Source: Geothrix sp. (lineage in GTDB: Bacteria; Acidobacteriota; Holophagae; Holophagales; Holophagaceae). Taken from it: DNA of 64,000 nucleotides. Location: NCBI RefSeq assembly GCF_020622065.1, contig NZ_JAHRYQ010000002.1:234232-298231 (forward strand), read 5' to 3'. Position 1 is the first letter of the stretch. Each line of letters starts with the position of its first letter. The notes below the pieces were generated by a model. It did no database searches. It saw nothing but the letters and a program-made list of their open reading frames with translations, and was not told the DNA's origin. The translations under genes and the position numbers were made by a program. Positions 11,550-12,074 of this stretch are shown here, piece by piece.

Positions 11550-12074
11550 TTATTCCTCATGCGAGGAGTGACTCCACGCATAGCCCTTCCCCTTAGGTAC
11601 TAGCTTTGTCCCCTCGGACTCGAATCCACCTACAAGAAGTCGAAATGGCTTCGGGCGAGGCGGCCCATAAAACAACCCTTGTTCCATTAGATCCAATGGT
11701 TCGGAAATGAAAACAGGATTCTGAGCCTCAGATTTGTTAAATGGGCCATTGAAAATAAGGAGAATAAATTTCTTCGGCGTGTGGCTAGGTATAATCACAG
11801 CAACAGCGAAGTCCTTCTTCCCATCACCATTGAAATCTCCGACCATGTAGTAAGGAGAATAATTTGAGACCGGCTTCCATGGTCCACCCATCCCGCGCCT
11901 AATGGATTGGATTTGCTCCATGCAATCACCGCAATCCTGTTCAGTCGCAAGTCTATAGCCAGGGTGGCTCTTTAGCCAATTTTTTATAATTTTATGGTGC
12001 GCCTGCTGGAGGGTTGGCTCTCTTTGAGTAGATGCTATAGCTAACAGGACTGAAAAAGCTAATGGAGCAAACAT
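11550..12074 (-). CDS. secreted FG-GAP/VCBS-like small protein; candidate immunity protein for the RHS toxin tip
   Basis: ATG 12074 lies 14 nt after the RHS TAA (12089-12091) and is preceded by GGGAG. It has a signal-peptide-like MFAPLAFSVLLAIAS and a GDFNGDGKKDFAV motif. G+C is low, like the toxin tip. Confidence 0.6.
   Translation of the reverse strand: MFAPLAFSVLLAIASTQREPTLQQAHHKIIKNWLKSHPGYRLATEQDCGDCMEQIQSIRRGMGGPWKPVSNYSPYYMVGDFNGDGKKDFAVAVIIPSHTPKKFILLIFNGPFNKSEAQNPVFISEPLDLMEQGLFYGPPRPKPFRLLVGGFESEGTKLVPKGKGYAWSHSSHEE

Follow-up and report, generated by a model that had tools for sequence, protein, structure and literature searches.

M15-like and MepA-like toxin domains of type VI secretion systems (T6SS) have already been catalogued together with adjacent immunity genes that encode signal peptides (PMC12135965). 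In Xanthomonas citri, the periplasmic lipoprotein XAC2610 (X-Tfi) inhibits the GH19 glycosidase XAC2609, an effector of the type IV secretion system (T4SS) (PMC10933484, PMC6536674). The Rhs cassettes described by Zhang et al. 2012 (PMC3482391) show a core ending in DPxGR, a variable C-terminal (CT) region and then an immunity gene, with a foreign composition. We analysed 64,000 nucleotides of Geothrix sp. DNA (contig NZ_JAHRYQ010000002.1, hereafter the window; all positions refer to it), where an Rhs gene on the minus strand (−) shows these same features and is followed by a candidate immunity gene of 174 aa at 11550..12074 (−). Judged from the sequence, the 174-aa gene probably encodes a cognate, Sec-exported immunity protein, which would inhibit in the periplasm the LAS (lysostaphin / D-Ala-D-Ala peptidase / Sonic hedgehog) peptidase domain of the upstream Rhs protein. 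Taken together, the gene layout, the fold of the toxin, the secreted and conserved protein family, the synteny and the co-variation make cognate immunity the most economical explanation.

The initial annotation had described a 174-aa gene at these positions, with a GGGAG Shine-Dalgarno (SD) sequence after the toxin stop and an ATG 14 nt downstream, and this arrangement was found to be exact. At the junction the minus strand reads ...ATT CTA TAA GGGAGATCGTCTTG ATG TTT GCT..., and positions 12091-12072 are TAA GGGAG ATCGTCTTG ATG. The toxin TAA (12091-12089) is directly followed by GGGAG (12084..12088, −), then by 9 nt and by the ATG at 12074, giving a gap of 14 nt; the gene ends with a TAA at 11552-11550. 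The open reading frame (ORF) translates as described, and its product holds MFAPLAFSVLLAIAS at the N-terminus and GDFNGDGKKDFAV at residues 79-91. This ORF is more than a chance ORF: its homologs number 73 (about 170 aa each, best E-value 1e-70), metagenome contigs contain at least 196 related loci, and its AlphaFold2 (AF2) model is confident.

A longer form of the protein, starting from TTG 12116, is given in the ORF listing and in the database entry P0001. It would have 188 aa and a 28-nt overlap with the toxin gene. The TTG lacks an SD sequence, and in L008, a related locus, the frame of the immunity gene is not open until the toxin stop has been passed, leaving the short form as the sole option there; ATG 12074 is therefore the better start. 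A promoter and terminator scan between the toxin gene and the 174-aa gene gave nothing above shuffle expectation, which is consistent with co-transcription, though uninformative alone.

The toxin gene at 12089..18748 (−) starts from GTG 18748 (alternative ATG 18613) and encodes a Rhs/YD-repeat polymorphic toxin of 2219 aa. Pfam matches were RHS repeats, a PKD domain and an Rhs core fragment, the TIGR03696 Rhs_assc_core model gave a partial match, and the N-terminus is signal-peptide-like. The Rhs core ends with the DPDGR motif at aa 1952-1956 (12881..12895, −), after which the variable CT region of 263 aa begins. Pfam showed nothing significant in this region (HH_signal, E 0.17), and a PDB sequence search gave weak matches around SPHYEGLAVD and GPHFHFQ, the matched proteins being N-domains of Sonic hedgehog and an M23 peptidase. 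In the alignment of ten homologous CT domains, H39, H45, D52, E78, H90, and H92 were invariant, forming the pattern H..H-x6-D..E..H-x-H, and the elements H, H-x6-D, E, and HxH were invariant in both alignments A3 and A4. Zinc ligands and catalytic residues of the LAS group follow this same pattern. The LAS (hedgehog/DD-peptidase fold) zinc peptidase domain lies at 12227..12532 (−), with the predicted Zn ligands H (12385-12383), D (12364-12362), and H (12244-12242) and the HFH motif at 12250-12242.

The AF2 model of the toxin CT region, built with 20 sequences, showed a predicted local distance difference test (pLDDT) score above 90 in the core. All of the top 16 Foldseek matches of this model were N-domains of Sonic, Indian or Desert hedgehog (Shh/Ihh/Dhh-N), the Streptomyces Zn DD-peptidase 1LBU, or E. 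coli MepA. Their probabilities were 0.75-1.0 (≥0.84 for 15 of the 16), with E-values of only 2e-3 to 5e-2. The invariant LAS motifs and the LAS-fold matches indicate that the toxin CT domain is, very probably, a zinc peptidase with the peptides of peptidoglycan as substrate, an activity predicted from the motifs and the model. The toxin gene claimed initially is thus identified as a Rhs polymorphic toxin with an LAS zinc peptidase-fold C-terminal domain, and the suggested periplasmic action on peptidoglycan appears plausible given this modelled fold.

Other features of the Rhs protein were also observed. Residues ~1500-1800, which separate the YD-repeat shell from the end of the core, contain the PKD domain and, after it, three or four Ig-like repeats (ASILPGEGASLSWKSSGATRL...). 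No PAAR domain was seen when the Rhs protein was scanned with Pfam, the rest of the window not being searched for VgrG or T6SS genes. This architecture, with PKD and Ig-like repeats, a signal-like N-terminus and no PAAR, is unusual. The last ~20 residues of the toxin (12092-12150, −) form a hydrophobic tail, GFVGHFGIALQTWMFGGIIL, which appeared as a low-confidence helix in the model and is partly conserved in the homolog P0074. This tail could be a membrane anchor or a packaging element.

The 174-aa protein has a signal-peptide-like N-terminus at aa 1-15 (12030..12074, −), with Kyte-Doolittle values of 2.0-2.4 over residues 1-16 and an AIA|S site that fits the −3/−1 rule. In the family alignment (A1) the N-termini are hydrophobic, and many combine basic residues in the n-region with small ones in the c-region, just ahead of the conserved H-T-L at the mature start, so the signal peptide noted for one protein extends, by sequence, to Sec-type signal-like N-termini across the family. 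A lipoprotein reading was rejected. Some relatives show L-M-[GIV]-C, but this Cys is not conserved and the window signal region has none. The Cys pair C48 and C51 (11922..11933, −) forms CxxC in the window protein and CxC in most relatives, and both positions are at least 90% conserved in A1; such a pair could form a disulfide outside the cytoplasm or contact a metal.

The calcium-binding motif reported initially is real, and it is the most conserved feature of the family. It is a single integrin-type FG-GAP Ca-binding loop at 11802..11840 (−), with the spacing D80-x-N82-x-D84-G85-x-x-D88. In the window protein the loop reads D80-F-N82-G-D84-G85-K-K-D88 and satisfies the D-x-[DN]-x-D-G-x-x-D form. 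D80 and D84 were invariant in the family alignment, and N82, G85, and D88 were at least 90% conserved. GPPRPKP (11646..11666, −) is the core of the near-invariant GLFYGPPRPKPYRL loop, seen across the family as a conserved GPPRPKPYRL loop, with G137, P138, P139, R140, P141, and P143 at least 90% conserved; we regard it as a candidate toxin-contact element. FNGPF and FESEG are further conserved stretches.

Pfam and NCBIfam scans of the window protein to E ≤ 1 gave no named immunity family (Imm1-74, SUKH, SuFu, and others), in agreement with the initial statement. The Pfam FG-GAP model (PF01839) matched at E 0.0025 with 18.1 bits, below its cut-off of 22.1, and covered only the ~20-residue Ca-loop. 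XAC2610_fam (NF047539) matched at 13.7 bits against a threshold of 35 (E 0.064), over model positions 3-25 of 89. The same scans of 60 family members gave FG-GAP and weak XAC2610_fam matches only, the former in 41 members and the latter in 29, where the best E-value was 0.0014. None of the 73 homologs had a Pfam domain or an informative name.

The AF2 model of the 174-aa protein (pLDDT 87, predicted template modelling score 0.81) showed three helices followed by a seven-strand beta region. Foldseek of this model against PDB gave nothing with E < 0.1; the best matches were integrin propeller blades with template modelling (TM) scores of 0.30-0.35, and no entry named XAC2610, PliI or Tsi1 was among the top 50. 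This search thus gives no support for structural kinship with known inhibitors of peptidoglycan hydrolases. In a profile search of PDB sequences, the matches were confined to FG-GAP blades, from integrin alpha-V and a secreted esterase. Membership in the FG-GAP/integrin-alpha beta-propellers was rejected, the match being a single motif below the gathering threshold and the propeller TM scores reaching 0.30-0.35 only. As no significant PDB neighbour was found and the profile matches were limited to blades, the 174-aa protein, as modelled, is a distinct domain embedding one integrin-type Ca-binding blade motif.

Family members came from soil metagenomes and Acidobacteriaceae-type genomes, with one copy in an Acidobacteriaceae metagenome-assembled genome. 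The GDFNGDGxxD pattern drew generic FG-GAP proteins into a scan of genome contigs with the full-family alignment; four loci were among the matches listed, and only L010 was a true member. The profile search of 1.84 billion representatives returned 19,190 proteins at E ≤ 1e-3, a number that is no measure of family size, as most were multi-repeat FG-GAP proteins matching positions 75-100; about half of the top 150 were true full-length members.

The synteny was analysed from the toxin side as well as from the immunity side. Searches with the toxin CT found about 20 database proteins (3 by single sequence and 18 by profile, two of them shared), plus copies present only in the fetched loci, and eight were looked up. 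P0074, P0075, P0077, and P0078, all found without use of the immunity gene, each had a family member directly downstream; P0076 lies at a contig edge and was excluded from the downstream-gene test. The downstream family gene was uncalled in L007 and frameshifted in L095. P0084, P0090, and the first CT of L003 (found separately) were followed by another family, fam2, and P0079 and the second CT in L064 by fam4.

A neighbour-joining tree of 19 CT domains showed four clades, which matched the downstream gene families exactly. The window clade comprised the window, L007, L008, L009, L064a, L037, L070, L079, L094, and L095, and the 174-aa family lay downstream in all nine of its other testable loci, four of which were found from the toxin side. 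In the L003b/L045 clade, fam3 came first and then a member of this family; one of the remaining clades was followed by fam2 and one by fam4. Within the window clade, the immunity start lay 14-47 nt after the toxin stop, with a GAGG or GGAGG SD-like sequence before it in eight related loci. Pairwise identities of CT and immunity proteins were correlated (Mantel r 0.50, p about 2e-4, n = 10), although this correlation is not independent of the shared ancestry of linked genes. The clade-wise co-variation supports, at the level of sequence comparison, a cognate periplasmic immunity protein. The expectation that homologs would follow homologous CT domains held in the diagnostic direction, from toxin to downstream gene: window-clade toxins were followed by the family in 9/9 cases and sister clades by other families. 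Most homologs of the immunity protein had no toxin beside them.

The downstream families of the sister clades were noted as well. Downstream of the second LAS-CT clade (L003 4983-6520; L097 233-1329; L099 525-1449) there is always fam2, a small secreted family with the motif DIC..GEFP...GVYL, which is probably a further unannotated immunity family. fam4, with the motif LLEFCPDxTCDGF, followed the third LAS-CT clade (L064 3460-4636; L096 1231-2421) and is a candidate immunity family.

The base composition of the window agreed with an acquired module. The segment at 9750..12880, which contains the toxin CT region, the immunity gene and a convergent NTP_transf_8 gene, had a GC content of 0.44-0.50, compared with 0.63-0.72 in the flanks. 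GC at third codon positions (GC3) was 0.75 for the Rhs core and 0.92 for murJ, and dropped to 0.51 for the toxin CT region, 0.46 for the 174-aa gene, and 0.43 for the NTP_transf_8 gene. The GC3 values thus place the toxin tip and the small gene in one foreign low-GC segment, whose sequence signature is typical of an acquired CT/immunity cassette.

Several observations weigh against cognate immunity. We fetched 92 loci with the family, 70 of which have at least 700 nt of upstream sequence. An LAS CT domain was upstream in 10 of these 70 loci (8 distinct), and the other 60 (~85%) were orphans with no toxin. Some orphans adjoin the housekeeping genes ATP synthase, dprA, and rsgA. The orphan L100 is 64% identical to the window protein, and its GC is the same as that of its own contig. 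The domain is also fused to unrelated N- or C-terminal domains in secreted proteins of 270-420 aa (P0115, P0202, P0181, P0165, P0168, P0159), which hints at roles beyond toxin immunity; the idea that these long homologs are toxin-immunity fusions was rejected, as the partners are unrelated domains and not LAS CT domains. The signal region of the window protein lacks a basic n-region. The CT family is small, making the synteny sample modest. The initial annotation had named homologs occurring mostly away from toxin genes as evidence against its proposal, and taken literally this is what 60/70 loci showed. We judge that criterion too strict and the orphan majority not refuting, because orphan immunity to secreted toxins, whether diffusible or delivered by contact, is common, as exemplified by orphan X-Tfi homologs and by immunity islets (PMC7400221, PMC6536674).

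These observations can also be explained by a different primary role, in which the family is a housekeeping periplasmic protein: it might inhibit or regulate the cell's own LAS-type cell-wall endopeptidases in general, or serve in the envelope in a Ca-dependent way. Rhs cassettes would then have captured copies occasionally, and the window copy might still protect, with immunity only secondary and derived. The predominance of stand-alone copies, the conserved housekeeping neighbourhoods of some, the native GC of L100 and the fusions in larger secreted proteins all fit such a role, as does the level of conservation, since across clades the immunity family retains ~50% identity compared with ~30-35% for the toxin. 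However, the neighbours of the orphans vary (integrase and IS/transposase fragments, membrane proteins, permeases), and many orphans sit in mobile-element or Rhs CT-array settings, as would be expected of cassettes that are mobile or have decayed more than of core genes. The low, foreign GC of the toxin CT region extends to the window copy, and the tight, SD-coupled synteny with one toxin clade is conserved. We therefore consider a primary housekeeping role unlikely. The family gene was also frameshifted in the metagenome loci L028, L033, L049, L074, L081, L038, and L095, which are either decaying orphan copies or assembly errors.

It is more improbable still that the 174-aa gene is a passenger or accessory gene, such as one that helps the Rhs toxin to be secreted or activated, or an orphan immunity gene that remained from a displaced cassette, with the true immunity gene located elsewhere or not needed. 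Orphan modules commonly pile up at Rhs loci, and L003 and L045 give an example of such behaviour. In both loci fam3 lies between the toxin and the family member, which is ~70% identical to the copies of the L037-type clade, while the adjacent toxin is only ~28% identical. The family copies of L003 and L045 are thus, by sequence, probably non-cognate orphans, with fam3 as the cognate partner there. In the window CT clade, however, the gene is always the first after the toxin, at 14-47 nt and with an SD sequence. The ORF listing showed no other candidate ORF between the toxin stop and the convergent NTP_transf_8 gene, and the window has no copy of fam2, fam3 or fam4.

fam3 itself is a recurrent neighbour, a 178-aa secreted protein with the motif FYGDGKPTWAVVLI (L003 7321-7956; L045 1282-1926; also L065, L006, and L023). 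It may be a remote relative of the 174-aa family. hhalign gave a probability of 27% (E 7e-4) over 67 columns and suggested a shared helix plus blade, which was insufficient for a homology call.

That the ORF is a generic FG-GAP/integrin-like adhesion fragment with a coincidental toxin neighbour deserves hardly any credence: FG-GAP repeats are its only database similarity, but there is one such motif within a distinct conserved domain of 150 aa, generic FG-GAP proteins match profile positions 75-100 only, and the repeated toxin-clade synteny is beyond chance, with ~200 loci among 241 million metagenome records.

The convergent NTP_transf_8 (PF12281) gene at 10161-11399 (+) encodes a nucleotidyltransferase of 412 aa. 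No homolog of it was found in any related toxin-immunity locus, so it is not part of the module. The scanned neighbour ORFs with Pfam matches were housekeeping genes (biotin carboxylase, murJ, acyl-CoA ligase). ORFs of 370-1254 aa at 1273-5037 (−), 20687-22182 (−), and 22316-23800 (+) had no Pfam domain at E ≤ 0.001, and are either real genes or antisense artefacts of high-GC DNA.

Under cognate immunity, the system would operate as follows. The Rhs protein would be exported via Sec, as suggested by its signal-like N-terminus and the absence of PAAR from its Pfam scan. The LAS zinc peptidase at its C-terminus would most likely cut peptidoglycan peptide stems or cross-links in the periplasm of the target. 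The 174-aa protein would be translated from the transcript of the toxin via the GGGAG SD sequence and exported by its own signal peptide, and in the periplasm it is predicted to bind and block the peptidase domain. The producer would thereby be protected during passage of the toxin through its own periplasm, and from toxin delivered by siblings. The proline-rich loop or the Cys pair may inhibit the peptidase by covering its zinc site.

A wider and more doubtful proposal, drawn by analogy, is that the family represents a class of inhibitors, not recognised before, that act in the periplasm on zinc peptidases of the hedgehog fold (LAS). Such inhibitors would combine a single Ca-binding blade with a new fold and would insert the GPPRPKPYRL loop or the Cys pair into the zinc groove, in the manner of HHIP on Sonic hedgehog. 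The orphans could then be community-wide resistance genes in Acidobacteria-rich soils, or regulators of the cell's own LAS endopeptidases.

The feature is real, and both the toxin domain and the immunity family are unnamed and unannotated, within a well-known kind of system. The pairing of an Rhs toxin domain with an immunity family, both of them unannotated, gives a putative function to at least 196 "hypothetical protein" loci from soil and peat metagenomes, and a toxin/antidote candidate pair to a poorly studied Acidobacteria-type lineage. To our knowledge, protein inhibitors of hedgehog-fold zinc peptidases are rare. A structure of the complex could therefore point to a novel mode of inhibition for LAS peptidases, MepA, VanX/VanY-like enzymes, and lysostaphin relatives included. 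The four downstream families that switch clade by clade around one toxin superfamily are a compact example of toxin-immunity co-diversification. The overall architecture is that of a textbook Rhs CT/immunity cassette and will not surprise a specialist.

Compared with the Rhs CT/immunity cassettes (PMC3482391), related loci here likewise carry arrays of orphan CT/immunity modules. The differences are that Pfam has no Tox, Ntox or Imm family matching either the CT region or the immunity protein, and that the immunity protein carries an integrin-type propeller-blade motif. The periplasmic immunity proteins of peptidoglycan effectors (T6SS Tsi1/Tai; PMC12135965) share with the 174-aa protein a small size, a signal peptide (predicted here), a position directly downstream of a cell-wall peptidase toxin domain (likewise predicted) and, as proposed, the logic of periplasmic neutralisation. 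They differ in sequence and fold, neither of which gave a match, and the immunity fold of the window has no significant PDB neighbour. The toxin also differs from T6SS effectors in being part of a Sec-type Rhs protein, PAAR being absent in the Pfam scan of that protein and the window not having been searched for VgrG or T6SS genes.

XAC2610 resembles the 174-aa protein as a periplasmic inhibitor of a peptidoglycan-targeting interbacterial toxin, a role that is predicted here, and through the weak, recurrent profile match over the FG-GAP-like motif. Membership in the XAC2610/X-Tfi family was rejected. The score of 13.7 bits is below 35 and covers 23 residues only, the window protein has no lipobox and no Cys in its signal region, and its partner is a Rhs LAS peptidase instead of a GH19/XVIPCD T4SS effector. 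XAC2610/X-Tfi was also absent by name from the PDB-sequence profile search (E ≤ 10) and from the Foldseek list.

On the toxin side, the CT domain shares the H, H-x6-D, E, and HxH motifs and the fold with the LAS metallopeptidases (Streptomyces albus Zn DD-peptidase 1LBU, E. coli MepA 1U10, and the Sonic hedgehog N-domain), and differs from them by its score below Pfam thresholds, its fusion to a Rhs shell and its hydrophobic C-terminal tail. The last comparison is with HHIP, whose beta-propeller binds the zinc groove of Shh (PDB 2WG4, 2WFX, and 2WG3, which were among the toxin-model matches). The likeness is one of concept, an analogy and not homology: in both cases a propeller-blade protein may neutralise a hedgehog-fold zinc domain.

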